Positions 4,094-46,449 are shown, counted from the stretch's first letter. The stretch is DNA of 52,910 bases from Vicinamibacteraceae bacterium (GCA_023384595.1 JAHDVQ010000002.1:1-52910); one strand, 5' to 3'. A program made the numbers and translations. Notes: generated by a model not told the origin, from the letters alone.

Positions 4094-4109
4094 AGGCACG
4101 CGGGTTGCA
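4094..4109 (+). promoter_or_regulatory. sigma54 (-24/-12) promoter candidate
   Basis: aGGCACGcgggTTGCAc, with GG at 4095-4096 and GC at 4107-4108, which is the canonical spacing. Confidence 0.55.
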
Positions 4110-4121
4110 CCCTCGGCCGGC

Positions 4122-4376
4122 ATGAGCGCGAGGACCCCCCAGCCCGCCCCCGATCAGTGCCCGGTCTGCCGGCACTTTCTCGCCGACCCGGACCAGCTCG
4201 AACGCGAGCTGCCGGGCCTCACGATTCTCTCATCTGCTTGGGGTTCCACGCGGGGACGCGCCGGTCTGTGCGCCCGGTTCGGGACCTGGCAGGACCCGGT
4301 CACCGGGTGCCGCGAGTTCTCGCCGCGCCCGCTCCCGGTGTTCCCCCACGGTGCTGCCCGCGTTACGCAGAGGTGA
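4122..4376 (+). CDS. hypothetical small four-cysteine protein (84 aa)
   Basis: ORF track entry with high GC3 and CPVC...C...C. The ATG lies 14 nt after the -12 GC, so the mRNA may be leaderless. The stop abuts the next gene. Confidence 0.4.
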   Translation: MSARTPQPAPDQCPVCRHFLADPDQLERELPGLTILSSAWGSTRGRAGLCARFGTWQDPVTGCREFSPRPLPVFPHGAARVTQR

Positions 4377-4377
4377 C
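4362..4377. promoter_or_regulatory. GTTAC-N6-GTGAC palindromic motif copy
   Basis: GTTACgcagagGTGAC, immediately upstream of the ATG at 4378 and about 267 bp downstream of the -24 GG at 4095. Confidence 0.4.
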
Positions 4378-6495
4378 ATGGCTACCGCTCTTACGCCCCC
4401 CTGGGCGCTTCCTCCCCCCGAGGCGACGCCGGCGCTACGGCAGCAGGCCGAGGCCATTCTGGAGCGCTGCCGCGGCGACGGCCCGGCCAACTGCGTGGCC
4501 CGCTGCCCGCTGCACGTCGATGCGCGCGGCTACGTCCAGTTGACGAAGGACGGGCGCTTTCAGGAGGCGCTGCAGCTGGTTCGCGAGCAACTGCCCTTTC
4601 CCGGCATCCTCGGCTACGCCTGCGCGCACCCGTGCGAGCTGCACTGCAAGCGCATCGACACCGACTCCCCCGTCCGCATCCGCGACATCAAGCGCTTCCT
4701 CGCCGAGTGGGAGCCCGGCCCGCCCCAGCACCGTGTCGACTGCGAGCCCGACCGCGGGAAACAGGTGGCGGTCGTCGGCGCCGGTCCGGCGGGGCTCCTG
4801 GCGGCCCACGATCTGCGCCGCAAGGGATATCGCGTCACCATCTTCGAGAAGGCGGCCGGCCTCGGCGGGTGCCTGACGAGCCGCATTCCCGCCTGGCGCA
4901 TTCCCCGCGACGTCGTCGATCGCGACCTCTCGGTGATTGCCGCCCTCGGCATCGACGTGCGGACGGGCATCGAGGTCGGCCGTGACATCTCGCTGCGCCA
5001 GCTGCGCGAGGGGTTCCCCGCGGTGCTGCTCCTCACCGGCTACGCTGGTGCGCTCGCCCTCACGCAGGGCGAACCCGAGCTCCAGCACGCACGGCGGGAG
5101 ATCCTCGGCGCCAATCCGGTCACCGGCGAGACCGCCATTCCCGGCGTCTTCGCCGCGGGCGACGCCACGAGCGGCCCCTCCACCATCGTCTACGCGATGG
5201 CGCAGGGTCGCCGGGTGGCCGAGTCGGCGCACCGGTTCCTGAGCGGCCTGGACGTCGGCGCCGATCGCGAGAGCCCGCTGCCGGCGCGCCTGCTCTGGAG
5301 CCTCGACATTCCCGAGGCGGAACGCCGCCGGCGCGAACGCACGCCGGTGATGCTCACCCCCGCCGTGCCGCCGCTCACGGAGGCGGAGGCCCGCGAGGAA
5401 GCCGCGCGGTGTCTCGACTGCCAGTGCGGGCTCTGCGTGAAGGACTGCGAGTTCCTGGCCAAGCACTGTCACTCGCCGCGCGATCTCGCGCGCCGGGTCC
5501 TCGCCGGCGTCGAGCCGCTTGACACGCGCACCGTCGCCTACTCGTGCAACATCTGCGAGCTGTGCGGCACGGTCTGCCCCGAGCACCTCGATACGGGGAA
5601 GATGCTGCTCGAGGCCCGCCGCGAAGCCGTCCGCCAGCAACTCGGTCCGCTCAAGCAGCACAAGCCCATCGTCGGTTACTACAAGGCCGGCGTGTCGAAG
5701 CCCTTCACCCTGGTGATGTCCGAGCCGGGCCGCACGAAGTCGAAGCGGCTGTTCTTCACGGGATGCTCGCTGCCGGCGACCGCGCCGGCGCACACGCTGC
5801 GCGTCTACGACGAACTCCGCCGGCACTACCCCGGCACGGGCGTGCTCATGTGGTGCTGTGGGGCGCCCGCAGAGCTCATCGGCATGGAGGAGGCCTTCGA
5901 GACGACGAAGCGGCAACTGCAGCAGGCGGCGGAGGCCACCGGAGCCGAGGAACTCGTCGCGGCCTGCCCCGACTGTCTGCACACGCTGCGTGGCGCGGAT
6001 CTGGGCCTGACGATCTCGACGGTGTGGGAACGGCTGGCCGGCCGCTGGAAGCCCCCGCAGACGCGCGAGGGCGTGGTCGTCTCGATCCACGACTCGTGCA
6101 AGGGCCGGCACGATCCGGCGCTGCACGCCTCGGTCCGGCGGCTGCTCGACGAGGGCGGCGTGACGGTACAGGACGTCGAGTATGCCGGTCCGCTGGCGCG
6201 CTGCTGCGGGTTCGGCGGCATGATCGCGCCCGTCGATCCGGCGTTGCAGGGCCGGATCACGGACCGCCGCGCCAACGAATCGCCGCTGCCGATGATCACC
6301 TACTGCGCGGGCTGCCGCACGGCGCTCGCGAGCCGCGGCAAGGCGTCGCTCCACATCCTCGACCTCCTGCTCTCCGACGACTGGCAGCAGAAGATGACAC
6401 AGAAGTCGCCCGGCTCGATTCCGCGCTATCTCAATCGCCTGAAGACCAAGTGGGCCTTCAAGCGGCTGCGGCCGCTCTCGGGCAAGGCGGAGTGA
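4378..6495 (+). CDS. fusion of a GltD-like FAD/Fe-S domain (second nucleotide-binding domain missing) to an HdrD/GlpC-like domain with two [4Fe-4S] motifs and two CCG motifs
   Basis: The N-terminus carries CVARCPLH...CAHPCELHCKR and VAVVGAGPAGL. The middle carries CLDCQCGLCVKDC and CNICELCGTVCP. The C-terminus carries the CCG motifs MWCCGAP and ARCCGFGG. I chose the ATG at 4378, which has a gaggtg RBS. Confidence 0.85.
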   Translation: MATALTPPWALPPPEATPALRQQAEAILERCRGDGPANCVARCPLHVDARGYVQLTKDGRFQEALQLVREQLPFPGILGYACAHPCELHCKRIDTDSPVRIRDIKRFLAEWEPGPPQHRVDCEPDRGKQVAVVGAGPAGLLAAHDLRRKGYRVTIFEKAAGLGGCLTSRIPAWRIPRDVVDRDLSVIAALGIDVRTGIEVGRDISLRQLREGFPAVLLLTGYAGALALTQGEPELQHARREILGANPVTGETAIPGVFAAGDATSGPSTIVYAMAQGRRVAESAHRFLSGLDVGADRESPLPARLLWSLDIPEAERRRRERTPVMLTPAVPPLTEAEAREEAARCLDCQCGLCVKDCEFLAKHCHSPRDLARRVLAGVEPLDTRTVAYSCNICELCGTVCPEHLDTGKMLLEARREAVRQQLGPLKQHKPIVGYYKAGVSKPFTLVMSEPGRTKSKRLFFTGCSLPATAPAHTLRVYDELRRHYPGTGVLMWCCGAPAELIGMEEAFETTKRQLQQAAEATGAEELVAACPDCLHTLRGADLGLTISTVWERLAGRWKPPQTREGVVVSIHDSCKGRHDPALHASVRRLLDEGGVTVQDVEYAGPLARCCGFGGMIAPVDPALQGRITDRRANESPLPMITYCAGCRTALASRGKASLHILDLLLSDDWQQKMTQKSPGSIPRYLNRLKTKWAFKRLRPLSGKAE

Positions 6496-6497
6496 TC

Positions 6498-9026
6498 ATG
6501 GCGACTCTGGACCCCATCGAGGTGATGGTCGACGGGCACCCCGTCACGGCCCTTCCGGGGACGCGGCTGCTCGACGTGCTGCGCGGGCTCGGTCTCCGCA
6601 TCCCGACCCTGTGCCACGACGATCGTCTGACGCCGTATGGCGGGTGCCGTTTGTGCGTGGTGACACGGCGCGACGGACGCGGCGGGCTCGTCCTCGCCTG
6701 CTCCACGCCGGTCCTGCCGGGCATGGTCATCGAGACTCACACGCCCGAGGTCGTCGAGGCTCGGCGCCAGCAGCTTCAACTGCTGCTGCTCAACCACCGC
6801 CTCGAGTGCCCGATCTGCGATCGCCGGGGCGACTGCCGGCTGCAGGAGCTGATGTTCGAGCACGGGGTGTCCGAGCAGCCGTACCCTTTCGAGCGCCCGC
6901 TGATTCCGCGCGACGAGTCCTCACCCGTCATCACGCGTGATCCGGAGAAGTGCATCCTCTGCGGCAAGTGCGTGCGCCTGTGCGACGAGGTCCAGGGTGT
7001 GGCGGCGATCGGCATCGTGCACCGCGGCCTCCAGGCCCGCGTGACGACGCTGCTCGATCGTCCGCTCGATTGCGAGTTCTGCGGGCAGTGCGTGAACAAC
7101 TGCCCCGTGAGCGCGCTGGTCGCGCGCCCGTACCTCGACGACACTCCGGCGTGGCTGCGCGAGCCGGCGACCACGACCTGCGCGTTCTGTTCCTGCGGCT
7201 GTCAGGTGACCGGCGAAACGTGGAACGGCGCGCTCGTGCGGGTCACCGGCGCCGGCGTGGACGAACCCAATCGCGGGAAGTTGTGCGCCAAGGGATGGCT
7301 CGGCTGGGACGTGCATCACGCGCCCGATCGCCTCACCCATCCGCTGGTCCGCCGCGACGGCCGCCTGATGGACGCGACGTGGGCCGAGGCGCTCGACGCC
7401 GTGGTCGGCGCGTTACGGCGCGCCCGCGACGCCGGACACCGTATCGTCGGTCTGGGCGGCTCGCGCCTCTCCTGCGAAGACGCCTACGCCATGCAGCGCC
7501 TGATGCGCACGGCGGCGGCGACTCCCCACATCGGGCTCGGCCCGGCCGGCGGCGCACGGGCGCTGGTGGAGGGCATGGGGGCACTGACTGGCGCGCCTCG
7601 CTCCACGGCCACGTTCGATGATGTGCGATCAGCCGACGTGGTGCTCGTCCTGCGCGGCGACCCGGCGCGGACGCATCCCCTGCTCAAGACCGAGCTGGTG
7701 CAGGGCGTGACGCAGCGCGGACAGACACTCGTGCTGGCGCATGCCCTGTCGGGGCCCCTCGATCGTCACGCGACGCTGCGCCTCCCGGTGCACCCGGCGA
7801 GCGAGGCGGCGCTCCTGCACGGGGTCGCCGCGCGGTTGCTGGCCCTCGACCCGGGCCTGGCCAGTCGCGTGCACGGGATTCCCGGCGCGGGCGAATGGCT
7901 CGCGAGCCTCGCGGCTTACGACGCGGAGACCGTCGTGCGACAGACCGGCCTGGACCTCACGGCGCTCGACGCGCTGGCGTCGGTCCTCGGACACGCGCGC
8001 ACGCTGGCCACGGCCGTCATCACCGGCCTCGGCATTCCGGGCGACGAGGCGGCTGTCACGCGTGCCGCGGTCGCCCTCGACGCGCTCGTCGGCGGCCGTG
8101 GTGTCATGGTGCTGGGCGAGAAGGCCAACCTCCAGGGCGTCATCGATGCCGGGCTGCACGGCGAGTGGCTGCCGGGCGGGCGCCCGACCGCCAGCGCGGA
8201 CGCCCGGGCCGAGGTGGGCGTCGCGTGGGGTCAGCCCGTACCGCCGCCCGCCCCAGTACCACTTCTGACCGCGATCCAGGCGGACGGCGGCGATCCGGTT
8301 GGCGTGCTCTATGTCGCCGGGCAGGACCCCGCGGGCGCCTGGCCGGGCGGACTCCGCGGCACCGAGGCCGTCGCGGCCGCGGCGTTCGTGGTCGTGCACG
8401 ACGCGTTCATGTCGGACACCGCGCAGCAGGCCGACGTGGTGCTGCCGGTCGCCATTCTGGGCGAGCGCGCCGGCTCGCTCGTCGCGGCCGACGGGGTGCG
8501 GCGCCCGCTCGTGCGCCTCGAACCGCCACCCCGCGCGGTGCCGCAGGATCGCGACATCTTCCGCGAGGTGAGCGCCCGCCTTGGCATCGCCATGCCAGAG
8601 GAGGCGGCACTGGTGGCCGAGATGGAGGCGCTGTGCGGGTGGCCGCGACCGCGCGCCTCGGTCCAGTGTCTCGTGCCGGCCGAACCGCCCGCCGCCGCGG
8701 CGCCAATCGACGGGCTGCTGCTCGACGGCTCGCCGCAAGTGTTCCGATCGGGCTCCATCACGGATCACAGTGCGAGGCTGCAGGAACTGTCGCCCTCGGT
8801 GGCCGTCAAGTTGTCGCGCCGAGAGGCCGCCGAGTTGAACATTGGCGACGGCGACACGGTGCTCGTCTCGGTGGGCGACCGTGCGGCGCTGCTGCGCGCG
8901 CGCGTCGACCCCGAGGTGCGGCCTGGCATGCTCGTCGCGCCGTGGCGGGCGCGGTGGGGGACGGCGGCCTCGCGCATGATCCCGGGCGACGAGCCCGCTC
9001 ACGCCCATATTCGGAGGTCATCATGA
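6498..9026 (+). CDS. NuoG / formate-dehydrogenase-alpha-like Fe-S molybdopterin-fold subunit, apparently without a Mo-ligand Cys or Sec
   Basis: Internal start MATLDPIEVMVDGHPV. Contains a 2Fe-2S region (CHDDRLTPYGGCRLC), HRLECPICDRRGDCRLQ, CILCGKCVRLC, CEFCGQCVNNCP, and CAFCSCGCQV...CAKGW. The segment equivalent to the FDH active site (HIGLGPAGGARALVEGMGALTG) has no cysteine. Confidence 0.85.
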   Translation: MATLDPIEVMVDGHPVTALPGTRLLDVLRGLGLRIPTLCHDDRLTPYGGCRLCVVTRRDGRGGLVLACSTPVLPGMVIETHTPEVVEARRQQLQLLLLNHRLECPICDRRGDCRLQELMFEHGVSEQPYPFERPLIPRDESSPVITRDPEKCILCGKCVRLCDEVQGVAAIGIVHRGLQARVTTLLDRPLDCEFCGQCVNNCPVSALVARPYLDDTPAWLREPATTTCAFCSCGCQVTGETWNGALVRVTGAGVDEPNRGKLCAKGWLGWDVHHAPDRLTHPLVRRDGRLMDATWAEALDAVVGALRRARDAGHRIVGLGGSRLSCEDAYAMQRLMRTAAATPHIGLGPAGGARALVEGMGALTGAPRSTATFDDVRSADVVLVLRGDPARTHPLLKTELVQGVTQRGQTLVLAHALSGPLDRHATLRLPVHPASEAALLHGVAARLLALDPGLASRVHGIPGAGEWLASLAAYDAETVVRQTGLDLTALDALASVLGHARTLATAVITGLGIPGDEAAVTRAAVALDALVGGRGVMVLGEKANLQGVIDAGLHGEWLPGGRPTASADARAEVGVAWGQPVPPPAPVPLLTAIQADGGDPVGVLYVAGQDPAGAWPGGLRGTEAVAAAAFVVVHDAFMSDTAQQADVVLPVAILGERAGSLVAADGVRRPLVRLEPPPRAVPQDRDIFREVSARLGIAMPEEAALVAEMEALCGWPRPRASVQCLVPAEPPAAAAPIDGLLLDGSPQVFRSGSITDHSARLQELSPSVAVKLSRREAAELNIGDGDTVLVSVGDRAALLRARVDPEVRPGMLVAPWRARWGTAASRMIPGDEPAHAHIRRSS

Positions 9027-9610
9027 TCGAGCCCCACGCGGCAGGCGCGGCCACGCTGGCCACGCCGCCCGTCGCCGCCGCCGCTGCGGCCGCGCCCGAC
9101 GCGCCCGGCGTCGAGGCCCTCGTCGACACGTTCATCGCTGCGCATCCCGGCGGGCACGAGCGGCTCATCCCGCTGCTGCACCTGCTGCAGGAGCGTCTGG
9201 GACACGTGCCGTTCGAGGCGCAGGACGTGGTGGCCGATCGTCTCGGACTGACGCCCATCCAGGTGTTCTCGGTCCTCAGCTTCTACCACTTCTTCACGCT
9301 GACCCCGCGCGGGCGTTACCCGCTCAAGGTCTGCATGGGGACGGCCTGCTTCGTCCGTCACGCCACACGACTGATCGAGACCATTCAGGATACGCTCGGC
9401 ATCGATGTGGGCGACTGCACGCCGGACCGCCTCTTCAGCCTGGAACAGGTGCGCTGCCTTGGCGCGTGCGGGCTGGCGCCGGCCGTCATGGTCGGCCAGG
9501 ACGTCCACGGCAACCTCGACACGAAGGCGATGCGCCGGCTCATCACGCAACTGCGGTCCCAGGGGCGACGCGAGGCGGTCGCGGCCGCGAAGGAGACGCC
9601 CCGTGGCTAG
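9023..9610 (+). CDS. NuoE/HoxE-like [2Fe-2S] thioredoxin-fold subunit
   Basis: Internal start with an ATGA overlap onto the upstream stop. Contains LIPLLHLLQERLGHV...FYHFF...VCMGTACFV...VRCLGACGLAP. Confidence 0.9.
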   Translation: MIEPHAAGAATLATPPVAAAAAAAPDAPGVEALVDTFIAAHPGGHERLIPLLHLLQERLGHVPFEAQDVVADRLGLTPIQVFSVLSFYHFFTLTPRGRYPLKVCMGTACFVRHATRLIETIQDTLGIDVGDCTPDRLFSLEQVRCLGACGLAPAVMVGQDVHGNLDTKAMRRLITQLRSQGRREAVAAAKETPRG

Positions 9611-11507
9611 CGCACCGGTGACCATCACGGCGGCCCCGCTCGGCGTCGGCGACCTCGCCCGCATCCGCGCCGAGCGCCGGCCGCGGCTCGAAGCGCGTCT
9701 GGCCTCGCTCCGGCCCGAGCGCGGCGTGGTGCGGGACGTGCTCGTGTGTGCCGGCGGCGGCTGCGTCTCGTGCCGGTCGACGACGCTCGCCGCCGAGTTC
9801 GAGCGGCTCATCGCCGCGTCAGGCCTGTCCGATCGCGCGCGGGTCGTGCAGGTCGGCTGCATGGGCCTGTGCGAGGCCGCGCCGCTGGTGCTCGTCGCGC
9901 CGGACGGCGTGTATTATCCGCGCGTCGACTTCTCCCTCGCCCGGCGCATCGTCACCGAGCACCTGGCGGAGGATGCACCCATCGGGGAGGCCGAGCTGAC
10001 GCACGAGCGCGATGGCGAGGTGCGCCGCAGCCGGGACGTACCCTTCTTCGCAAGACAGCTGAAGATCGCGTTGCGCAACTGCGGCGTGGTCGATCCGCTG
10101 AGCCTCGACGACTACATCGCGCTCGACGGCTACCAGGCGCTGGCGCACGTCCTGCTGGAGACCACGCCGGACGCGGTGCTCGACACGCTCAAGCGTTCGG
10201 GACTGCGTGGGCGGGGTGGCGCCGGCTTCCCCGCCGGCCTCAAGTGGCAGTTCGTCCGCGAGGCCGCGGGAGACGAGAAGTACATCATCTGCAACGGCGA
10301 CGAGGGCGACCCCGGCGCGTTCATGGATCGCAGTATCCTCGAGGGCGACCCGCACTCGGTCATCGAGGGCATGGCGATCGCCGGACACGTGGTGGGCGCA
10401 CGCCGCGGGTACGTCTACGTCCGCGCCGAGTACCCGCTGGCCATCGAGCGGCTCGGCCACGCCATCCTCGAGGCACGCGCCGCGGGCATCCTCGGCGCCC
10501 GGGTGCTGGGCACCGAGGCGGCCTTCGACCTCGAGATCCGCATCGGCGCCGGGGCCTTCGTGTGCGGCGAGGAAACGGCGCTCATCGCGTCGGTCGAGGG
10601 TAAGCGGGGCATGCCGAGGCCGCGACCGCCGTTTCCCGCACAGGCTGGCCTCTGGGGACGGCCAACCCTCATCAACAACGTCGAGACGTGGGCCAACGTG
10701 TCGCCCATCGTGCTGCGTGGTGCCGCCTGGTTTGCCGGCATCGGCACGGCGCGCAGCAAGGGCACGAAGGTCTTCGCGCTCGCGGGCGACGTGCGCAACA
10801 CCGGACTGGTCGAGGTGCCCATGGGCATCTCGCTGCGCGAGATCGTGCACGACATCGGGGGCGGCATCCGGTCGGATCAGCCGTTCAAGGCGGTGCAGGC
10901 CGGCGGGCCCTCCGGCGGGTGCGTGCCCGCCGAGGCGGCCGACGTGCCGGTCGATTACGAGTCGCTCCAGTCACTCGGCGCCGTCATGGGGTCGGGCGGC
11001 CTCATCGTGCTCCACGAGGGCACGTGCATGGTGGAGCTGACCCGGTTCTTCCTCGAGTTCCTCGTGGACGAATCGTGCGGCAAGTGTCCCCCGTGCCGCA
11101 TCGGCCTGCGCGTGATGCTCAACCTCGTCGAGCGGATCACCAAGGGCCTCGCCGCGCTGGAAGATCTCGACACGCTGATGGGTCTGGCGCGGCACATCCA
11201 GCGCAGCTCGCTGTGCGGTCTGGGCCAGACGGCACCGAACGCCGTGATCTCGACGCTCGAGCACTTCCGTGACGAGTGGGAGACGCACATCTACGATCGC
11301 CGCTGCCCCGCGCTCCAGTGCCGCGCACTGCTCACCTACGAGATCAACGAGGCCCTCTGCAACGGGTGCACGCTGTGCGCGAAGGCGTGCACCTCGAATG
11401 CCATCACCGGTGAGCTGAAGCAGCTCCATCGCATCGACGCGCTGCTCTGCACGCACTGCGGGGCCTGCGTCACCGCGTGTAACCGCGGCGCCGTCGTGGC
11501 GCACTGA
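9603..11507 (+). CDS. NuoF/HydB-like NAD(H)- and FMN-binding subunit with an N-terminal 2Fe-2S domain and a C-terminal 2x[4Fe-4S] domain
   Basis: GTG at 9603, 7 nt after AGGAG. Contains GRGGAGFPAGLKW, NGDEGDPGAF, ESCGKCPPCR, and C-terminal CNGCTLCAKAC...CTHCGACVTAC. Confidence 0.9.
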   Translation: MASAPVTITAAPLGVGDLARIRAERRPRLEARLASLRPERGVVRDVLVCAGGGCVSCRSTTLAAEFERLIAASGLSDRARVVQVGCMGLCEAAPLVLVAPDGVYYPRVDFSLARRIVTEHLAEDAPIGEAELTHERDGEVRRSRDVPFFARQLKIALRNCGVVDPLSLDDYIALDGYQALAHVLLETTPDAVLDTLKRSGLRGRGGAGFPAGLKWQFVREAAGDEKYIICNGDEGDPGAFMDRSILEGDPHSVIEGMAIAGHVVGARRGYVYVRAEYPLAIERLGHAILEARAAGILGARVLGTEAAFDLEIRIGAGAFVCGEETALIASVEGKRGMPRPRPPFPAQAGLWGRPTLINNVETWANVSPIVLRGAAWFAGIGTARSKGTKVFALAGDVRNTGLVEVPMGISLREIVHDIGGGIRSDQPFKAVQAGGPSGGCVPAEAADVPVDYESLQSLGAVMGSGGLIVLHEGTCMVELTRFFLEFLVDESCGKCPPCRIGLRVMLNLVERITKGLAALEDLDTLMGLARHIQRSSLCGLGQTAPNAVISTLEHFRDEWETHIYDRRCPALQCRALLTYEINEALCNGCTLCAKACTSNAITGELKQLHRIDALLCTHCGACVTACNRGAVVAH

Positions 11508-11518
11508 GGAGGACGTCG

Positions 11519-11896
11519 ATGAGCCGAAAGACGGTCATGGTCGTCGACGACGACCCGGTCTTCCGCGAGGCGGTGGGCGCGGTGCTCGAAACCCGGTACG
11601 ACGTGCGCGAGGCCGCCAACGGCGCGGACGCCCTCGCCGCGCTCGCCGGGGCGCTTCCCGACCTCATCGTCCTCGACGTGATGATGGACTACCCGTCGGA
11701 AGGCTTCGACGTCGCGCGCACGTTGCAGAACGACGAACGCACGCGCCCAATCCCCGTCGTGATGCTCACCGGCGTCGACCAGGTCTACAACTACCGGATG
11801 GAGACCGACGAGACGTGGGTGCCGTGCGCGCGGTTCCTCGAGAAGCCGATCACGCCGGAGCGGCTCCTGCAGGAGATCGGCGAGCTGATCGGATGA
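11519..11896 (+). CDS. single-domain response regulator (CheY-like)
   Basis: VMVVDDDPVF...LIVLDVMMD...FLEKP. Confidence 0.85.
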   Translation: MSRKTVMVVDDDPVFREAVGAVLETRYDVREAANGADALAALAGALPDLIVLDVMMDYPSEGFDVARTLQNDERTRPIPVVMLTGVDQVYNYRMETDETWVPCARFLEKPITPERLLQEIGELIG

Positions 11897-13428
11897 ACGG
11901 TCCCGACCAGGACCTCGACGACGCCTCGCTCGGCGACGAGCTCGCGGGGCGCCTCGCGTGGTTCGTGCGGCTGCGGTGGGTGGCCGTCGCCACCCTCGCG
12001 CTGGCCGCGGTGGCCGGTCCGCCCGTCGGGCTCGATCGCTTCTGGCCCGGCCTGCTCTACATCGCCGCCGCCGTGGCCGGGTACAACGCCCTCTGCTGGT
12101 GGCGCCTCACCCGCGCGCGGGCCGCCGGGACGACGAGCGATCCCGCACACCCGATCCCCTCCATCGATCTGCGCGTGCTCGCCGTGGCCCAGGTCACGCT
12201 CGACCTCGCCGCCCTGCTCGTCGTGGTGCATCACACGGGATACCTGGCGAGCCCGCTCCTCCCCTTCTTCGGGTTCCACATGGCGATCGGCACCATCCTG
12301 CTCTCGACCCGGACGATGTACCTCGTCGCGGGCGCCACGAGCGCGGCGGCCGTCGTGCTGCAGATCGCCGGATGGGGTGACGCGGTGCTCAACCCGGCAC
12401 TCATGGTGCCGAGCCCGACGTCTGTCGTCGTCGCGCTGCCGCTCGCCGCCTTCGTCGGCTTCCTCTTCGGCATCGTCTACCTCACGGGGTCGGTGAGCGA
12501 TCGGCTGAAGCAGCGGAACACCGAGCTGCGCCGGCTCACCGGCGCCCTGCGCCGCCAGTCGGACGATCTCGAGCGGCTGGTGGCGGAGCTCGACGAGATC
12601 GAGCGGCGCAAGTCGCACTACATGCGCGTGTCGGCGCACCAGCTCCGTTCGCCACTGGGCACCGTGCGGACCGCCCTGGACGTGCTCGCCGGCGGCTACG
12701 TGGATCTCGCGACACCGCGCGGGCAGCATCTCATTCGCGGGGCCACCGAGCGTGTGGACGGCCTGCTCCGGATCGTCAACGGATTGCTCGATCTGGCAAA
12801 GGTCCGCGAGGGCCGGCAGCGCGCGCCGTGGACGCGGCAGGTGAACATCAACCAGCTCGTCGCGGACCTCGTGGACGCGCTGGCGCCCTTCGCCGAGGAG
12901 CGCGGGGTGCGGCTCGAGGCCCGCCTCGATCGCCTCGCGGTGCTCGACTGGGGCGTGCCGCCCGATCTCGTGCACGCGGTCGAGAACCTGCTGCACAACG
13001 CCATCAAGTACTCGCACGCCGGCGGCGCGGTCGCCATCGAGTTGGCCGTCGAAGACGACGTCGCCCTCGTCAGCGTGACCGACAAAGGCATCGGCGTGCC
13101 CGAGGAGTTCCACGACCAGTTGTTCCTCGAGTTCGTGCGGGCGCCGAACGCCCGTGTGCACGCCCCCATCGGCACCGGGCTGGGCCTGGCGCTCGTCCGC
13201 GAGGTGGCCGAAGAGCACGGCGGCGTCGTCGAGTACTTCCACCCCCCGGACGGCGGCGCCTGTTTCCGACTGGCACTCCCCCTCCACATCCGGCCCCGCG
13301 AGGCCGTCGGGCCGTTACCGGGCCGTGACGCCGCGGGTTACCGGCCGGACACGAAGCCCCGCCAGGCCGGCGCCCCGGGCGGCGGAATCCGCGAAATACA
13401 GCCCGTTTCCCGCGTTCTCCGGCCCTGA
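11893..13428 (+). CDS. membrane-bound sensor histidine kinase (about six TM helices, HisKA and HATPase_c domains)
   Basis: The ATG at 11893 overlaps the upstream stop. H-box SHYMRVSAHQLRSPL, N-box LLHNAIKYS, and G-boxes DKGIGV and GTGLGLALV. Confidence 0.85.
   Translation: MNGPDQDLDDASLGDELAGRLAWFVRLRWVAVATLALAAVAGPPVGLDRFWPGLLYIAAAVAGYNALCWWRLTRARAAGTTSDPAHPIPSIDLRVLAVAQVTLDLAALLVVVHHTGYLASPLLPFFGFHMAIGTILLSTRTMYLVAGATSAAAVVLQIAGWGDAVLNPALMVPSPTSVVVALPLAAFVGFLFGIVYLTGSVSDRLKQRNTELRRLTGALRRQSDDLERLVAELDEIERRKSHYMRVSAHQLRSPLGTVRTALDVLAGGYVDLATPRGQHLIRGATERVDGLLRIVNGLLDLAKVREGRQRAPWTRQVNINQLVADLVDALAPFAEERGVRLEARLDRLAVLDWGVPPDLVHAVENLLHNAIKYSHAGGAVAIELAVEDDVALVSVTDKGIGVPEEFHDQLFLEFVRAPNARVHAPIGTGLGLALVREVAEEHGGVVEYFHPPDGGACFRLALPLHIRPREAVGPLPGRDAAGYRPDTKPRQAGAPGGGIREIQPVSRVLRP
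13314..13329. promoter_or_regulatory. GTTAC-N6-GTGAC palindromic motif copy (candidate enhancer/UAS)
   Basis: GTTACcgggccGTGAC, centred about 123 bp upstream of the -24 GG at 13445. It lies inside the 3' tail of the kinase ORF. Confidence 0.45.
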
Positions 13429-13443: not shown

Positions 13444-13459
13444 GGGCACAGCGGTTGCA
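13444..13459 (+). promoter_or_regulatory. sigma54 (-24/-12) promoter candidate
   Basis: gGGCACAgcggTTGCAc, with GG at 13445-13446 and GC at 13457-13458. Confidence 0.6.
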
Positions 13460-13536
13460 CTGACGGATCGGGGCTTCTGCGCAAGAGGCGCCGTCAGGTG
13501 GACGGGCAGGGGCTCGAATACAGGAGGACAGTCCTT

Positions 13537-14496: not shown

Positions 14497-14520
14497 CGTC
14501 GGTCACCTGTCAGATGGCGG

Positions 14521-17664: not shown

Positions 17665-17694
17665 CGCGGGCGTTACTGTCGAGTAACGCCCGCG
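17665..17694 (+). terminator. 12-bp-stem hairpin after gltA that also contains a GTTAC-N6-GTAAC motif copy (17672-17687)
   Basis: cgcgggcgttac-tgtcga-gtaacgcccgcg followed by tggccgcttttg. The motif centre lies about 71 bp upstream of the -24 GG at 17751. Confidence 0.5.
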
Positions 17695-17749: not shown

Positions 17750-17765
17750 CGGCACACCGCTTGCT
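17750..17765 (+). promoter_or_regulatory. sigma54 (-24/-12) promoter candidate
   Basis: cGGCACAccgcTTGCTc, with GG at 17751-17752 and GC at 17763-17764. Confidence 0.6.
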
Positions 17766-22618: not shown

Positions 22619-22619
22619 C
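22604..22619. promoter_or_regulatory. GTTAC-N6-GTGAC palindromic motif copy (candidate enhancer/UAS)
   Basis: GTTACgccgcgGTGAC overlaps the stop codon of the upstream gene, centred about 103 bp upstream of the -24 GG at 22715. Confidence 0.45.
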
Positions 22620-22713: not shown

Positions 22714-22729
22714 TGGCCCGCGCGTTGCT
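22714..22729 (+). promoter_or_regulatory. sigma54 (-24/-12) promoter candidate for the dsrAB operon
   Basis: TGGCCCGcgcgTTGCTt, with GG at 22715-22716 and GC at 22727-22728. Confidence 0.55.
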
Positions 22730-32140: not shown

Positions 32141-32156
32141 GTTACCCGCACGTAAC
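32141..32156. promoter_or_regulatory. GTTAC-N6-GTAAC palindromic motif copy (candidate enhancer/UAS)
   Basis: gcGTTACccgcacGTAACgc is a perfect 7-bp inverted repeat, centred about 101 bp upstream of the -24 GG at 32250. An extra half-site CGTTAC is at 32116-32121. Confidence 0.5.
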
Positions 32157-32248: not shown

Positions 32249-32264
32249 GGGCACGCTGGTTGCT
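32249..32264 (+). promoter_or_regulatory. sigma54 (-24/-12) promoter candidate for the dsrMKJOP operon
   Basis: gGGCACGctggTTGCTc, with GG at 32250-32251 and GC at 32262-32263. Confidence 0.6.
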
Positions 32265-36741: not shown

Positions 36742-36748
36742 GGCGGAC

Positions 36749-37906: not shown

Positions 37907-37907
37907 G

Positions 37908-39572: not shown

Positions 39573-40618
39573 GCGTGCTGCCGCCGCCGGGAGCCGGAGA
39601 GCCCGCGCTGGTCGCGGTGGGCATCGATCGGCGCGCGGCCGGCGTGGAGCGGCTCGCGGCCCTCAATCGGACGCGCCGCGACGAGATTCTCGCCGCCTGG
39701 CCCGTCCCCGGCACCGGATTGGTCACGCTCTCGACGTGTCATCGCCTCGAGTGGTACGTCGAGGCCCGCGACGTCGAAGCCGTGCTGGCGGCGTACCACG
39801 AGTGGCTCCCGGCCGCGGCCCCCGGCGAGCCGCGCGTGCGCACCGGTCGTGACGCCGCCGTGCACCTGCTGCGCGTCGCCGCCGGCCTCGAGTCGGCGGT
39901 GCTCGGCGAGGACCAGATCCTGGCGCAGGCGCGTGACGCATACCGTGCCGCGTGTGCGAACGGCCGGTCGGCTCCCCTGCTCCACCGTGTGTTCCACGCG
40001 GCCTTCCGCGCCGGACGCCGCGTCCGTGGCGAGACGACGCTGGCGGCCGGCACGCGATCGCTGGCTGGAGCCGCGGTGGCCGCCCTGCACCGCCGCCTTG
40101 GCGGCCTCGCCGGGAAGACGGTGCTCGTCCTCGGCGCTGGCGAGATGGCGCGGCTGGCGGTGCGGCTGCTCGCCGACCGGAACATCGGCCGGCTCGTCGT
40201 GGCCAATCGCACGGCCTCGCACGCGCAGGTGCTGGCGAGCCGCTACGGGGGCGAGACCCTGCCCTGGGAGTGGCGGCTGGGCGTGCTCCCGGTTGTCGAC
40301 GGTGTCGTGGCGGCCACGGCTTCGCCCGTGCCGGTCGTCGATGCCGGCGCGCTGGCCTTCGTGAGTGCGCATCGATCGTCGCCGCTCGTGGTGGCCGACC
40401 TCGGCATGCCGCCGAACGTCGCCGATCACCGGGTGCCCCGCGTCGAGGTTTTCGACGTCGAGCAGCTCGGGGTCCTGCTGCATGAGGAGGAGGGCCGCCG
40501 GGCCGCCGCCGTGGCCGACGCCGAGGCCATCGTCGAGGAAGAGGCCGCCAACTGGGCGGCCTGGCACCGCTCGCGCCTGCTGCGCCGCTCCTGCGGCGCG
40601 GCACGCGCCGCACGTTGA
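39569..40618 (+). CDS. hemA: glutamyl-tRNA reductase
   Basis: Internal ATG overlapping the upstream TGA. Contains LSTCHRLEWY (catalytic Cys), ESAVLGEDQILAQ, and VLVLGAGEMA. Confidence 0.88.
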   Translation: MSVLPPPGAGEPALVAVGIDRRAAGVERLAALNRTRRDEILAAWPVPGTGLVTLSTCHRLEWYVEARDVEAVLAAYHEWLPAAAPGEPRVRTGRDAAVHLLRVAAGLESAVLGEDQILAQARDAYRAACANGRSAPLLHRVFHAAFRAGRRVRGETTLAAGTRSLAGAAVAALHRRLGGLAGKTVLVLGAGEMARLAVRLLADRNIGRLVVANRTASHAQVLASRYGGETLPWEWRLGVLPVVDGVVAATASPVPVVDAGALAFVSAHRSSPLVVADLGMPPNVADHRVPRVEVFDVEQLGVLLHEEEGRRAAAVADAEAIVEEEAANWAAWHRSRLLRRSCGAARAAR

Positions 40619-40623
40619 GGAGA

Positions 40624-42468
40624 ATGGTCATGTTCCCCGTTGCCCTGCGTCTCGAAGACCGAAAGGTCCTGGTCGTCGGAGCCGGTCCCGTCGCGCTGCG
40701 CAAGGTGCTGTCGCTCGTCGAGGAAGGCGCGCGCGTGACCGTGGTCGCCCCCGAGGCCGTGAACGAGATCGAGACGCTGGCCGGTGCCGGCCGCCTGACC
40801 CTGGAGCGCCGGGCGTACCGCCGCGGCGAGGCGGGCGAGGGCTACGCCCTCGTCTTTGCGGCCACCAACGTGCGGGACGTGAACGCGGCGGTGTATGCCG
40901 ATGGTGAAGCGGCCAACGTCTTCGTCAACGTCGCCGACGTCCCCGACCTGTGTTCGGCGTATCTGCTCGGGCGTGTGCGCCGCGGACCCCTCGAGCTCAC
41001 CATTGGATCGGGAGGCGGCGCGCCGTTTCTCGTCGGCCGGCTGCGCACCCTCCTCGAGGAGCGTCTGGGACCCGAGTGGGCGGAGTGGGGCGAAGCCGCC
41101 GCGACGTTCCGCACCGAGGTCCGCGCCCGCGGATTGACCCTGGCCGCCCAGGAGGCGGCCTTCACGGCCTTCTTCACCGGCACGCTCGACGAGCGCCGGC
41201 TGACGGTGCGGGTTCCGTCCGCCGAGGAGCGGCGCGCGTGGATCGAGGCGGCGGCCGCCACCCTGCCCGCGGCGCCTCGCGGGCAGCCCGCCAAGGCACT
41301 GCTCCGCGCGGAAACGGAGACCGGGCCTGGGGCCGCCACCCGCGCTCGCGCAACGGGCACGAGGCAGTACGGCCTCGTCTCGCTCGTCGGTGCCGGACCC
41401 GGGCACGCGGGCCTGTTGACCCTGCGCGGCCGTCAACGGCTCCTCGAGGCCGATGCGGTCGTCTACGACCGGCTCGCGGCCGGGGCCCTGCCCACCGACC
41501 TCGGCGCCGACGTCGAGCTGCACGGCGTGGGCAAGGAAGCGGGCCGGCACCCGGTGCCCCAGGAGCAGATCTCCGATCTGCTCGTCAGGCTCGCCCGCGA
41601 GGGCAAGCGCACCGTCCGCCTGAAAGGCGGCGACCCGTACGTCTTCGGGCGCGGCTCGGAGGAGGCGGAAACCCTGCACGCGGCGGGCGTCCCCTTCGAG
41701 GTCATTCCCGGCGTCACTTCGGGCATTGCGGCCACGGCGGCCGCCGGAATCCCGGTGACCCACCGCCGGGAAGCCGTGCAGGTGACGCTGCTCACTGCCC
41801 ACGAGTGCGCCAAGTCGGAAGGGTCGCAGGTCCGCTGGGACCTCCTTGCACGGCAAAGTGACGCCACAATCGTGGGATACATGGGCGTGAGCGCCATCCG
41901 GGGCGTGGTGGCCCGGCTCGTCGCCGAGGGCATGGATTCCGGCACGCCTGCTGCAATGGTGGAACAGGGGGCCACGTCGGCGCAGCGGTCCGTGGTCGCG
42001 ACGCTCGCCACGCTCCCCGATGCGGTCGAGCGGGCGTCGCTCTCGGCCCCGGCCCTCTTCGTCATCGGGCCGACGGTGCGCCACGCCGATCTGCTGAACT
42101 GGGCGGTTCGCCGGCCGCTGGCCGGGGAACGGCTCGCGGTCCCCCTGAGGGCGACCGATCTCCAGCGGCAGCTCGAAGACGCGGGCGCCGAAGTCGTCGC
42201 GGTCCCCCTCCCCATCAGTCCGGCGGCGCGCGTCGTGCTGGGCGCCAGGCCACTCACGGGCTGTGTGGTCACATCAGCGGCCGAGGTGGAACTGTTCGAT
42301 GAGGAGTGTCACGGATCCAGCGACGGCACGGCCTGGGCCGGATGGTGCCTGGGCCGGGACGCCGCCGCCCGCGCGCGTGAACGCGGCTGGCCTCGTGTCG
42401 AGCTCGTCGAGCGCGCCGGCGACCTCGTCGAGCGGGTCTCGGCCGCCCGCGCCCGCCGCGCCTCGTAG
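40624..42468 (+). CDS. multifunctional siroheme synthase: precorrin-2 dehydrogenase/ferrochelatase (SirC-like), uroporphyrinogen-III C-methyltransferase, and a short HemD-like C-terminal domain
   Basis: VLVVGAGPVALRK (Rossmann fold), then LVGAGPGHAGLLTLRG...LKGGDPYVFGRG...IPGVTS (methyltransferase), then a tail of about 130 aa resembling half of uroporphyrinogen-III synthase. The start is ATG at 40624 or 40630. Confidence 0.82.
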   Translation: MVMFPVALRLEDRKVLVVGAGPVALRKVLSLVEEGARVTVVAPEAVNEIETLAGAGRLTLERRAYRRGEAGEGYALVFAATNVRDVNAAVYADGEAANVFVNVADVPDLCSAYLLGRVRRGPLELTIGSGGGAPFLVGRLRTLLEERLGPEWAEWGEAAATFRTEVRARGLTLAAQEAAFTAFFTGTLDERRLTVRVPSAEERRAWIEAAAATLPAAPRGQPAKALLRAETETGPGAATRARATGTRQYGLVSLVGAGPGHAGLLTLRGRQRLLEADAVVYDRLAAGALPTDLGADVELHGVGKEAGRHPVPQEQISDLLVRLAREGKRTVRLKGGDPYVFGRGSEEAETLHAAGVPFEVIPGVTSGIAATAAAGIPVTHRREAVQVTLLTAHECAKSEGSQVRWDLLARQSDATIVGYMGVSAIRGVVARLVAEGMDSGTPAAMVEQGATSAQRSVVATLATLPDAVERASLSAPALFVIGPTVRHADLLNWAVRRPLAGERLAVPLRATDLQRQLEDAGAEVVAVPLPISPAARVVLGARPLTGCVVTSAAEVELFDEECHGSSDGTAWAGWCLGRDAAARARERGWPRVELVERAGDLVERVSAARARRAS

Positions 42469-42493
42469 GCCGGCGTCGTCCCAGCCTGGGGCC

Positions 42494-43429
42494 GTGCGGC
42501 GGCTCGCTCCCCTCCTCGCCGCCGTGCTCTCCGTCGGGATGCTCGCCGGCCAGCCGGCGCGCCCGCCGGCGTCGCGCGCCGCCACGCAGGGCGCCCTCCT
42601 CACCGGGAAGCCGCTGGCCCGCTTCGGCGTGGTCAGCTTCTACAACCCTCGGCTGATGTATCTCAAATATCAGCCGCTCATGGACTACCTGTCGGCGCAC
42701 ACGCCGTGGCGCTTCGAACTGGCGCTGAGCGCGTCGTACCGCGAAACCGTCGATCGACTCTGCCGCGGAGACCTGCAGCTCGCCTACCTCGGGCCCCTCA
42801 CCCACCTCCGCGCCAGACAGCAGTGCGGGGCGCGCGCGGTGCTGCGTCTGAACACCCGCGGCCGCGACACCTACTCCGCCTACATCATGGTGCGGCAGCA
42901 CAGCCTCATTCGCGACCTCGGCGACCTGCGCGGCCGGCGCATCGCCTTTGGCGCGGTGCTCTCGACCTCATCGCACCTCGTGCCGCGCGCGATGCTGCTC
43001 GACGCGGGGCTCCGGCCCGGCCGCGACGTCAGGTGCCGGTACTACGCCCATCACGAGCGCGCCGCGCGCGCGGTGCTGCTCGACGAGGCCGACGCCTGCG
43101 GCGTGCGCGACCTGGTGGGCGATCAGTTCAAGAGCCGCGGCCTGCGCGTGATCGCCGAGTCTCCCCCCATCCCGAATTTCTCGTTGAGCTTCGCGCCGTC
43201 CAGCTCCCCCGAATTGCTGGCCGCCATCCGCGACGCGCTGGTGGATCGGCCCGCGAGGCTCCCGGCCGCCGACCAGCCCTTCCGGCACATGGACGAAGAG
43301 TTGTCGGGCGGCTTCGCGCCAACCAGCGACGCCGCCTACGCGCCGGTGGCGGCCCTGGCCGCCCGCGTGCTCGGCGACGGGGCGCTCACGCGTCCCGTCG
43401 ACACGCTCATGTGCGTCCCGGAGCGCTGA
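42494..43429 (+). CDS. PhnD-family (phosphonate/anion ABC-type) periplasmic substrate-binding protein with no adjacent transporter genes
   Basis: The GTG at 42494 gives the signal peptide VRRLAPLLAAVLSVGMLAG. Contains FGVVSFYNP, GDLQLAYLGP, IAFGAVLSTSSHLVP, and ADACGVRD. Confidence 0.7.
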   Translation: MRRLAPLLAAVLSVGMLAGQPARPPASRAATQGALLTGKPLARFGVVSFYNPRLMYLKYQPLMDYLSAHTPWRFELALSASYRETVDRLCRGDLQLAYLGPLTHLRARQQCGARAVLRLNTRGRDTYSAYIMVRQHSLIRDLGDLRGRRIAFGAVLSTSSHLVPRAMLLDAGLRPGRDVRCRYYAHHERAARAVLLDEADACGVRDLVGDQFKSRGLRVIAESPPIPNFSLSFAPSSSPELLAAIRDALVDRPARLPAADQPFRHMDEELSGGFAPTSDAAYAPVAALAARVLGDGALTRPVDTLMCVPER

Positions 43430-43430
43430 C

Positions 43431-44902
43431 GTGGTGAAGCTGGGGCTGCGCGCCAAGTTCTTTCTCTACTCGAACACCGTCATCGGCGTGACGATCGCGG
43501 TCGCCGTGGCGCTGGCGGTCATGCACGACCGGCAGGGGCACTACGAGGCCGCGCGCCGCCACGCGCGGCAACTGGCCGCGGTGCTCGCCATTCCGATCAC
43601 CGACGCGCTCATGTACGAGGACCTCGGCCTGGTGTCGGAGACGGGGCTCACCGACAACTACATCTCGGAGATCCTGTTGCAGGATCCCGAACGTCTGCGC
43701 TACGTGATGGTCGCCAATCCCGAGGGGACCATCACGCACTCGAACCGGTGGAGCCTGCTCGGGCAACGATTCGATCGCGCGCTCGGCGCCGAGGCCATCC
43801 CGGGCGGGGCGATCGTCGAGGAGCGGCTCGACGGCAAGGAGCGGCTGCTCGAGGTCCGGTATCCGCTGCACATCGCCTCGAAGTTCTGGGGCTCGGTGTC
43901 GCTCGGCTACTCGCTCATGCCCATCGAGCAGGAGCTCGCCGATTTCAAGTGGCGGCTGATCCAGACCGGGTTGTTGCTGATGTTGGCCAACTCGGTGCTC
44001 ACGGCGATCTACGTCGAGTCGCTGATTCGGCCCATCCTGCGGCTGAACGAGACCATGAAGGAGGCCGGCGAAGGCAACCTGGCCTCGCGCGTGTGGACGA
44101 GCCCTGGCGACGAGGTCGGAGAGCTCGGCGCCGCCTTCAACCGCATGATGGACCAGCTCGAAGAGGCGGGGCTGCGCGAACGCGTGCAGCAGGCGCAGCT
44201 GGCGCACACGGAGAAGATGGCGGCCGTCGGTGCGCTCGCCGCCGGCGTCGCGCACGAGGTCAACAACCCGCTCGCGGGGATCCTGAACTGCATCGAGAAC
44301 ATGCAGGCCGAACCGGACAACCGCGAGATGCGGGAGCGCTACCTCGTGCTCATCCACGACGGCCTGCGCCGCATCGAACGCACGGTGGTGAACCTGCTCG
44401 ACTTCTCGCGGCGCCGCGAGCTGCGGCTCGAGCCGACCTCCGTCAACAACTGCATCCGCCACGTCGTCGAGCTCGTCGACTACCAGCTGCGCAAGCAGCG
44501 CGTGACGCTCGAACTCGACCTGGATCAGGATGAACCGGCCATCCAGGGCGACCGGTTCCAGCTCGAGCAACTCTTCCTGAACCTGACGCTCAACGCGCTG
44601 CAGGCCATGCCTCAGGGCGGCACGCTGACAACGCGGACCCGCCGGATCGACGGCGTCGTCACCGCCACGGTCGAGGACACGGGCGTCGGCGTGCCCGCCG
44701 CGATCAGAGACCGCATCTTCGATCCGTTCTTCACGACCCGGGCCGTCGGCGAAGGGACCGGACTCGGGCTCTCGGTGAGCGATCGCATCGTCACCGCCCA
44801 CGGCGGCCGTATCGAGGTCGAGAGCACGCCCGGCAGCGGCTCGGTCTTCCGCGTGGTGCTGCCGGCACGGCTCCCGGCCCGCACCGAGAAGGAGATCCAC
44901 TC

Positions 44903-44906
<4 letters not shown>
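43431..44906 (+). CDS. sensor histidine kinase (periplasmic loop, HAMP, HisKA, HATPase_c)
   Basis: Two TM helices, HAMP domain (IRPILRLNETMKEAGEGNL), H-box AAGVAHEVNNPL, and G-boxes DTGVGV and GTGLGLSV. Confidence 0.9.
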
Positions 44907-46315
<1,409 letters not shown>

Positions 46316-46333
46316 CATCGGCGAGTCGCGGAA

Positions 46334-46349
46334 GTTACGGAGGGGTGAC
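46334..46349. promoter_or_regulatory. GTTAC-N6-GTGAC palindromic motif copy (candidate enhancer/UAS)
   Basis: aGTTACggagggGTGACg, centred about 93 bp upstream of the -24 GG at 46435. An AT-rich tract (46391-46420, tgcatataaaggtgttaacaaaagc) lies between the motif and the promoter. Confidence 0.5.
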
Positions 46350-46433
46350 GACGCATCCGGATCCACGTGATTGAAGCCCACCTAACTTCTTGCATATAAA
46401 GGTGTTAACAAAAGCTCAACCAGATTGAAGCCG

Positions 46434-46449
46434 GGGCATATCGCTTGCA
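46434..46449 (+). promoter_or_regulatory. sigma54 (-24/-12) promoter candidate for the porin gene
   Basis: gGGCATAtcgcTTGCAc, with GG at 46435-46436 and GC at 46447-46448. Confidence 0.6.

Follow-up and report, generated by a model that had tools for sequence, protein, structure and literature searches.

Candidate sigma-54 promoters, each paired with a shared inverted repeat, in the dissimilatory sulfite reductase gene island of a Vicinamibacteraceae bacterium

The NtrC/glnAp2-type promoters of enterobacteria belong to the enhancer-dependent sigma-54 class, and in Caulobacter crescentus sigma-54 flagellar promoters are served by enhancers, the FlbD ftr elements, that lie downstream of them. 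As for the dissimilatory sulfite reductase (dsr) genes, dsrABD and dsrMKJOP of Desulfovibrio have been assigned to a predicted Rex regulon, and the paper on the D. vulgaris sigma-54 regulome never mentions dsr (PMC4641369). The regulon of the enhancer-binding protein (EBP) OrpR, a redox sensor of D. vulgaris with an Fe-S PAS domain, consists of two orp operons only (PMC8359166). Dsr-bearing Acidobacteriota, which have both dsrD and dsrL (PMC6018796), are abundant in peat, soils and marine sediments, and may be either sulfite or sulfate reducers or sulfur oxidisers. The present analysis concerns six -24/-12 elements in a dsr island of a Vicinamibacteraceae bacterium (GCA_023384595.1, JAHDVQ010000002.1:1-52910). 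The window, i.e. the whole analysed stretch of 52.9 kb, has 70% G+C and carries nearly all of its genes on the + strand; an initial annotation had proposed one sigma-54 promoter in front of each of six sulfur-related transcription units.

All six 16-mers, designated P1 to P6, were found where they had been placed, with the sequences and the exact GG-N10-GC spacing claimed for them (Table 1), and they differ from TGGCAC-N5-TTGCW at one to three of the 12 specified bases. When the whole window was scanned on both strands with a sigma-54 position matrix, the five highest scores fell on five of the six sites, P4 (22714) coming eighth. Intergenic DNA (2,019 bases, ca. 4% of the window) held six matches of at least 13 bits and five of at least 15 bits, compared with three and none, respectively, in the 50.9 kb of coding DNA, and with 0.04 and 0.017 expected from first-order Markov-resampled intergenic DNA. 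The intergenic density is ca. 50-fold higher, and the objection that equally good matches might be as dense inside genes thus fails. All six sites are intergenic, on the sense strand and upstream of genes, and the matrix-independent pattern GGCA-N6-TTGC occurs five times in the window, each time on the + strand at one of these sites. As a whole, the window showed no global enrichment of the consensus with at most two mismatches (10 matches vs. 7.7 expected) or at most three (60 vs. 76), or of bare GG-N10-GC (1364 vs. 1333); with flat window-wide counts and a large intergenic excess, the signal is therefore positional and not global.

Alignment of the six regions on the -24 element brought out an inverted repeat, GTTAC-N6-GTRAC, of which the window holds six perfect copies (R1 to R6), one per promoter. 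With one mismatch allowed, about 1.2 matches would be expected in the window, and the observed count was reached in none of 100 shuffles. For P2 to P6, the repeat centre lies 71.5-123.5 bp upstream of the GG, within the 70-150 bp typical of sigma-54 activator sites, and these distances are, modulo 10.5 bp, 8.0, 8.5, 9.0, 7.0 and 9.5, respectively; the five fall within one 2.5-bp band (p ~0.02, a rough estimate), which places these repeats on one face of the helix. The 11-bp spacing of the half-sites suits a dimeric Fis-type helix-turn-helix (HTH), as in the binding sites of the NtrC family, and GTTAC-N6-GTRAC is probably the enhancer of these promoters. The flanks of the six regions are ca. 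30% identical, i.e. at the random level; since the regions have only these motifs in common, they are not copies of a repeat element, and a dispersed or mobile repeat behind them is ruled out. Between repeat and promoter, P2 to P6 each have an A/T-rich patch, conspicuous in DNA of 70% G+C and a possible IHF-like or bending site; such patches lie 25-52 bp upstream of the GG in the window. No exact match to the IHF consensus WATCAANNNNTTR occurs in the window, and some relatives have the near-consensus ATCAA-N4-TTG.

The comparison with relatives covered 80 dsrA-centred loci from species-representative genomes: 38 (661 kb) are labelled Acidobacteriota and 39 (631 kb) belong to other phyla (Gemmatimonadota, Myxococcota, Planctomycetota, Zixibacteria and others), with dsrA ca. 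70% identical and similar dsrABDLN genes. The comparison places the window in a Vicinamibacterales (Acidobacteriota) lineage. Exact copies of the repeat number 44 in the acidobacterial loci, and 34 of the sigma-54 sites there are preceded by a repeat at 60-160 bp, sharply clustered at 109-110 bp (start to start), whereas the loci of the other phyla contain no repeat and no promoter/repeat pair and, their dsrABDLN genes being homologous, act as a natural negative control. In most Acidobacteriota, the promoter of the dsrA operon is a perfect TGGCAC-N5-TTGCA; the weaker P4 variant, TGGCCCG, is common to the window and its closest relatives, in which the form TGGC(C/G)C is conserved. The start-to-start spacing of the R4-P4 type is 108-111 bp in ca. 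25 acidobacterial loci. Aligned on the -24 element, the footprint has three blocks under conservation: the repeat, the -24/-12 core and, 30-40 bp upstream of the GG, an A/T-rich CAA-N4-TTG that in some lineages comes close to the IHF consensus.

Counterparts in other species were found for all six promoters. P2-type sites precede rhodanese genes in four loci, P3-type sites precede the same HdrD/DsrK-like gene in nine, and P5-type sites precede dsrT or dsrM in at least 11. P6-type promoters are present in two loci, L087 and L088, where the repeat following the orthologue of the activator gene EBP2 (described below) has one mismatch and none, respectively. Concerning the same porin gene in L130 (11380-11431) and L131 (11500-11557), a sigma-70-like TTGTGA...TATACT was found after the EBP2 orthologue and not a sigma-54 promoter, so that the promoter type at the porin gene has switched within the phylum. 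A Rokubacteria dsr locus (L076, 783-3300) encodes an EBP of its own and has, before dsrT, two sigma-54-like sites (TGGTAC.. and TGGTAT..) with no GTTAC repeat; here another phylum may have recruited sigma-54 to its dsr genes independently.

At P1, the repeat lies downstream of the promoter. Among 39 metagenomic relatives of the GltD/Hdr-like gene that starts at 4378, ca. 30 have CGGCAC-N5-TTGCA and then the repeat 93-282 bp downstream, mostly at 268-271 bp, and always just ahead of the GltD/Hdr-like gene, with or without the small open reading frame (ORF) that follows P1 in the window; the P1 geometry is therefore conserved and constrained at the DNA level. R1 overlaps the final codons and the stop of this ORF (4122-4376) and abuts the ATG at 4378. 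The ORF has the pattern CxxC ... LSSxxGSTRG ... C, the GTTAC-N6-GTGAC repeat itself codes for its C-terminal 'VT-x-x-stop', and its homologues, 41-68% identical, adjoin GltD/Hdr genes or lie just upstream of dsr promoters in other Acidobacteriota. In L100 (1380-1635), L107 (5685-5940) and similar loci, the interval of ca. 270 nt between promoter and repeat lacks a homologue of the small ORF yet retains long conserved blocks, and may hold a small gene of another kind or a structured leader RNA. A site at 4496 (TGGCCCGCTGCCCGCT) inside the GltD/Hdr gene was rejected as the partner of R1: it lies in coding DNA, is without TTGC and has no counterpart in relatives. On the upstream side of P1, the tandem copies of GGCTTTGTA are unusual for DNA of 70% G+C and are possibly a bend or the site of an architectural protein.

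The predicted leaders of the six units measure 2-91 nt. At P1 and P5, the transcription start site (TSS) is predicted 2 nt ahead of the ATG at 4122 and of the GTG at 32277, respectively, and both mRNAs would be leaderless; the P5 16-mer ends 13 nt ahead of GTG 32277, the sole usable start codon of dsrT. Two relatives, L008 and L046, have a comparable candidate dsrT start, a GTG at +2 or +3, in L046 also with downstream alternatives. Leaderless P1 and P5 transcripts as a conserved trait are ruled out, since most relatives have leaders of 13-46 nt with ribosome-binding sites. The genes from dsrT to EBP2 are tightly packed or overlapping, and their spacing suggests a single P5 operon of 14 kb, from dsrT through EBP2.

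Taken together, the paired repeats, the orthologous promoters and an operon-embedded activator support the proposal of one sigma-54 promoter per sulfur-related unit. On this evidence, there is little doubt that the six predicted sites are genuine sigma-54 promoters, it is likely that the window forms a sigma-54 regulon with a shared enhancer, and we infer that transcription depends on sigma-54 in vivo.

Two sigma-54 activators had also been claimed (at 2432 and 44903), and both bear out the claim by their Pfam domains and their contact motifs, GSFTGA and GAFTGA. In domain searches, the first, EBP1, showed no REC and no recognisable HTH_8, having instead an unusual C-terminal region of ca. 110 aa; it may form a split response regulator with the stand-alone receiver protein that overlaps its 3' end. 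EBP1 is not conserved beside P1 in relatives and is the second, less likely candidate activator. The other, EBP2, is of the NtrC family by its REC, AAA+ and Fis-type HTH domains and by the cognate-type kinase gene adjacent to it. Neither EBP reached an NCBIfam equivalog cut-off (for EBP2, the AtoC score was 471 against a cut-off of 714), and no PAS domain was found in either, so that neither is OrpR-like.

Orthologues of EBP2 at least 70% identical occur in thousands of protein clusters, and the recognition helix (T/S)RKTLWEK is invariant in 120 homologues. On four contigs from Vicinamibacterales and Thermoanaerobaculia/Thermoanaerobaculales, EBP2 ends a conserved string of genes, dsr(T)MKJOP, (hemA), siroheme synthase, (binding protein), kinase and EBP2, often with the porin next in line; two of the four also hold dsr loci with repeat/promoter pairs. 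Two contigs have cysG-kinase-EBP2 as a module separate from dsr, immediately preceded by GTTAC half-sites or one-mismatch repeats. The periplasmic binding protein encoded before the kinase, presumed to be the ligand receptor of the sensor system, has weak NCBIfam matches to phosphonate and putative selenate binding proteins, and its gene adjoins that of the kinase in four other loci as well (L086-L088 and L129). EBP2 is thus the leading candidate for the protein that would bind the repeat, at odds a little short of even, and the assignment is a weak one. If EBP2 is the activator, its place within the P5 operon implies positive autoregulation.

The mechanism proposed for these elements would unite six units in one sigma-54 regulon: the Nuo/Hdr-like electron input, the rhodanese-DedA-citrate synthase unit and the Hmc/DsrK-like membrane complex behind P1 to P3, and yeiH-dsrABD-L-N-C, dsrT-dsrMKJOP with the siroheme genes and the sensor system, and the anion porin behind P4 to P6. 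Sigma-54 RNA polymerase would bind each -24/-12 promoter and be unable to open it alone; an activator of the EBP class would bind the GTTAC-N6-GTRAC enhancer, assemble an AAA+ ring, reach the polymerase by DNA looping, probably aided by the A/T-rich bend, and open the promoter by ATP hydrolysis. At P1, the enhancer would act from ca. 270 bp downstream, inside the transcribed leader. The histidine kinase would phosphorylate EBP2, with the periplasmic PhnD-family protein probably sensing an oxyanion, and, since the P5 operon closes with the genes for binding protein, kinase and EBP2, the circuit would be self-amplifying. Extended to the Acidobacteriota as a whole, this would mean that the entire dissimilatory sulfite-reductase pathway (electron-input module, membrane complexes, siroheme synthesis, transporters and outer-membrane anion porin) is one sigma-54 regulon, switched by a self-amplifying three-component sensor of the dsr operon that reads GTTAC-N6-GTAAC, at one promoter from within the transcribed leader. 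The probability given to this phylum-wide reading is roughly 0.4.

Several observations weigh against the regulon and mechanism proposed for the window. P4 is the weakest of the six sites, with C replacing A at -22. The sigma-54 matrix is approximate, being modelled on published compilations; the plain-consensus counts and the perfect-consensus sites in relatives are independent of it. No RpoN was found among the 1.8 Mb of sequence searched, in which none was expected; a 2011 survey reported RpoN in three of three Acidobacteria genomes (PMC3372290). In L129-L131, near-repeats lie upstream of cysG with no neighbouring sigma-54 site, and the P1 repeat sits in the transcript by a start codon, a position that also fits an operator or an RNA element. 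Concerning the activator, one Holophagae locus has yet another EBP adjacent, and in Sulfomarinibacteraceae and Thermoanaerobaculia a different EBP (cysteine-rich PAS, AAA+, HTH_8), whose recognition helix differs from that of EBP2, is encoded immediately upstream of the same repeat and promoter.

These last observations bear on the best placed of the competing explanations, in which the sigma-54 promoters and the enhancer repeat are real and the binder is another EBP, e.g. an OrpR-like cysteine-rich PAS EBP encoded outside the window, or EBP1. In L021, L025 (8085-9497), L028, L032, L037-L039 and L048, a gene for such a PAS-AAA+-HTH_8 protein immediately precedes the repeat, the promoter and dsrA. 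Their PAS domain carries C-x8-C-x3-C (CCD-x6-C-x3-C) with an acidic residue two positions past the first cysteine, a pattern that matches the Fe-S ligands C52, C61 and C65 of OrpR with D/E54 (PMC8359166) and points to redox (Fe-S) control of dsr in Sulfomarinibacteraceae and Thermoanaerobaculia. EBP genes usually co-localise with their target promoters (PMC8359166), and EBP1 is encoded just upstream of P1. However, the PAS-EBP is absent from the window; L023 and the Vicinamibacterales relatives, which without exception share the repeat, also lack it over the 10 kb ahead of dsrA, whereas EBP2 is present in the dsr operons of the Vicinamibacterales relatives; EBP1 is disfavoured by its lack of a recognisable HTH_8 and of conservation beside P1. 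Moreover, the PAS-EBP relatives carry a second motif next to the -24, TGTGG-N6-TCACG, which could be the PAS-EBP's own site, and binding of the repeat by another EBP appears unlikely on balance. This motif, a CRP/FNR-like dyad, was found ca. 20-35 bp upstream of the -24 of the dsrA promoter in L019, L021, L025, L031 and L037-L039; it is limited to the PAS-EBP lineages and may be the site of a second regulator.

As binder of the repeat, EBP2 was thus ranked first, an EBP encoded elsewhere second, and a role of the repeat outside EBP binding third. The third explanation, that the promoters are real and the repeat is the operator of a non-EBP repressor or co-regulator, or at P1 an RNA hairpin affecting translation of the GltD/Hdr-like gene, draws on P1 and its ca. 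30 relatives, where the transcribed leader contains the repeat 20-90 bp ahead of the start codon, as is typical of an operator or a roadblock; the near-repeats of L129-L131 and the sigma-70-like porin promoters of L130 and L131 are also in its favour. It is improbable, since P2 to P6 and 34 promoters in relatives have the repeat 60-160 bp ahead of the -24, with a closely kept spacing (109-110 bp) and helical phase; from there, a repressor could not block the polymerase, and the DNA lies outside the promoter's own transcript. In addition, a 5-bp stem with a 6-nt loop makes a weak RNA hairpin, and the ftr elements provide a precedent for sigma-54 enhancers acting from downstream. Finally, that the six matches arose by chance in a 70% G+C genome, with the operons on ordinary housekeeping promoters, would agree with whole-window consensus counts no higher than in shuffles but is already contradicted by six matches in 2 kb of intergenic DNA where 0.04 are expected, all on the sense strand and each paired with a repeat, and by the conservation of the sites across orders and classes, often as perfect consensus. 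Scans of the six regions found no sigma-70 consensus (0 of 6) and no terminator, which carries little weight in DNA of such G+C.

The features of the window are collected in Table 1. Reading frames were picked by G+C content at third codon positions (GC3), genes were named from Pfam and NCBIfam, and several start codons were refined against a metagenome-assembled contig with identical DsrA (NCBI GCA_048499115.1). The gene labels given earlier to the regions behind the six sites proved essentially right by Pfam, with two refinements, i.e. the small ORF after P1 and the distance between P5 and dsrT.

Table 1. Promoter elements, inverted repeats, transcription units and regulator genes of the window (TSS, transcription start site; GG, the GG of the -24 element)
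Feature	Position	Strand	Sequence	Description
P1 -24/-12 element	4094..4109	+	AGGCACGCGGGTTGCA	17.1 bits, top matrix score in window; predicted TSS ~4120
P2 -24/-12 element	13444..13459	+	GGGCACAGCGGTTGCA	15.7 bits; predicted TSS ~13470
P3 -24/-12 element	17750..17765	+	CGGCACACCGCTTGCT	15.6 bits; predicted TSS ~17776
P4 -24/-12 element	22714..22729	+	TGGCCCGCGCGTTGCT	13.5 bits, rank 8; predicted TSS ~22740
P5 -24/-12 element	32249..32264	+	GGGCACGCTGGTTGCT	15.3 bits; predicted TSS ~32275
P6 -24/-12 element	46434..46449	+	GGGCATATCGCTTGCA	15.7 bits; predicted TSS ~46460
R1	4362..4377		GTTACGCAGAGGTGAC	268 bp downstream of P1
R2	13314..13329		GTTACCGGGCCGTGAC	centre 123.5 bp upstream of P2 GG
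R3	17672..17687		GTTACTGTCGAGTAAC	perfect palindrome inside an inverted repeat with 14-bp arms; centre 71.5 bp upstream of P3 GG
R4	22604..22619		GTTACGCCGCGGTGAC	centre 103.5 bp upstream of P4 GG
R5	32141..32156		GTTACCCGCACGTAAC	centre 101.5 bp upstream of P5 GG
R6	46334..46349		GTTACGGAGGGGTGAC	19 bp past EBP2 stop codon; centre 93.5 bp upstream of P6 GG
A/T-rich patch, P2	13386-13400			between repeat and promoter
A/T-rich patch, P4	22662-22676			between repeat and promoter
A/T-rich patch, P5	32199-32213			between repeat and promoter
A/T-rich patch, P6	46394-46408			between repeat and promoter
Tandem repeat	4046..4081		(GGCTTTGTA)x4	directly upstream of P1 -24 element, most A/T-rich stretch there
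P1 unit, first gene	4122..4376	+		84-aa cysteine-rich small ORF; no Pfam or NCBIfam family
P1 unit, rest	4378..13428	+		GltD/HdrD-like flavo-iron-sulfur protein, NuoG/Fdh-like, NuoE-like, NuoF-like, receiver, histidine kinase (Pfam, NCBIfam)
P2 unit	ATG 13537 or GTG 13498 to 17636			rhodanese, DedA/VTT, unknown gene, citrate synthase
P3 unit	17821-22618			HdrD/DsrK-like CCG protein, unknown gene, 4Fe-4S protein, NrfD-cytochrome c3 fusion
P4 unit	22785-32090			YeiH-like, dsrA, dsrB, dsrD, unknown, dsrL, dsrN, two unknowns (one TPR), dsrC
P5 unit	32277-46315			dsrT, dsrMKJOP, pyridine-nucleotide-disulfide oxidoreductase, hemA, siroheme synthase, binding protein, kinase, EBP2
P6 unit	46551-48110			anion-porin gene (Porin_O_P family), perhaps also 48144-48974
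EBP1	2432-3553	+		Sigma54_activat and lid domains only, GSFTGA; PF00158 E-value 1e-65
Stand-alone receiver protein	3507-4001	+		overlaps EBP1 3' end
Periplasmic binding protein	42263..43429	+		PhnD/phosphonate-binding family, PF12974
Sensor histidine kinase	43431..44906	+		sCache, HAMP, HisKA, HATPase; synteny conserved
EBP2, NtrC-type activator	44903..46315	+		REC, Sigma54_activat (AAA+) with GAFTGA, HTH_8; PF00158 E-value 9e-71

Beside these features, a pair of genes coding for a 120-aa unknown protein and a 191-aa TPR protein (30831-31768) lies between dsrN and dsrC; it is kept at the same position across Acidobacteriota and partly in the dsr clusters of Myxococcota. A perfect G+C hairpin with 16-bp arms and without a T-tract (22623-22655) directly follows the NrfD-cytochrome gene, between R4 and P4, and hairpins like it stand where the preceding units end, at 3995-4026 and 46294-46323. 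A Rfam scan gave no match. A seventh promoter candidate, CGGAACGAGCTTTGCT (2247-2262, - strand, 12.9 bits), located in a divergent intergenic region ahead of a TPR-protein gene cut off by the left edge of the window, was rejected: it has no repeat partner, ca. 340 nt separate it from the gene, and the TPR gene has no relation to sulfur.

If the phylum-wide reading is true, the ligand of the binding protein would reveal the sulfur compound that these uncultured bacteria respire or oxidise. The conserved circuit would also offer an experimental handle: the enhancer/promoter pair could be searched for across whole genomes so as to delimit the regulon, the binding protein and the kinase are open to ligand screening, and the promoters could be used in heterologous sigma-54 systems without cultivation. 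Standard sigma-54 biology limits the surprise; its control of this pathway is what is unexpected. The initial annotation had called sigma-54 control of a dsr island an unusual architecture, which holds within the searchable literature: among open-access papers and preprints, no report of sigma-54 together with dsr was found, the main papers on acidobacterial and global dsr clusters mention no sigma factors or promoters for these loci, and a 2025 cross-phylum survey of sigma-54 mentions neither Acidobacteria nor dsr. The regulon appears to be unreported in the open-access literature, and the mechanism itself is textbook.

Compared with NtrC/glnAp2, the island shares the TGGCAC-N5-TTGCW core with GG-N10-GC, inverted repeats as activator sites, some 100-140 bp upstream and on one helix face, an activator composed of REC, AAA+ (GAFTGA) and a Fis-type HTH, and regulator genes in a self-controlled operon. 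It differs by its dissimilatory sulfur and electron-transfer targets, its GTTAC-N6-GTRAC repeat, its phylum (Acidobacteriota), the extra periplasmic PhnD-family binding protein in the sensor, and the one enhancer downstream of its promoter. As regards the latter, FlbD/ftr offers the likeness of an activator site downstream of the transcription start, as proposed for P1; the activator, the site and the pathway are other ones, and the distance here is ca. 270 bp, across a small ORF or leader. With OrpR (PMC8359166), the dsr-adjacent EBPs of relatives share the PAS, AAA+ and HTH_8 layout and the cysteine/acidic pattern, a likeness by motif alone; the window itself has no OrpR-like gene, and its GTTAC repeat has no relation to the OrpR site, GGGCGYRTTTTGCGCCC. 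The sulfur respirers D. vulgaris Hildenborough (PMC4641369) and D. alaskensis G20 (PMC4045070) likewise have many EBPs beside -24/-12 promoters, with upstream palindromic sites centred near -100 in one example. However, it is the whole dsr island that has sigma-54 promoters here, and dsr is not among the Desulfovibrio targets; with Desulfovibrio dsr in a predicted Rex regulon and not in the sigma-54 regulome, the expression logic of the same pathway would thus have diverged between phyla.

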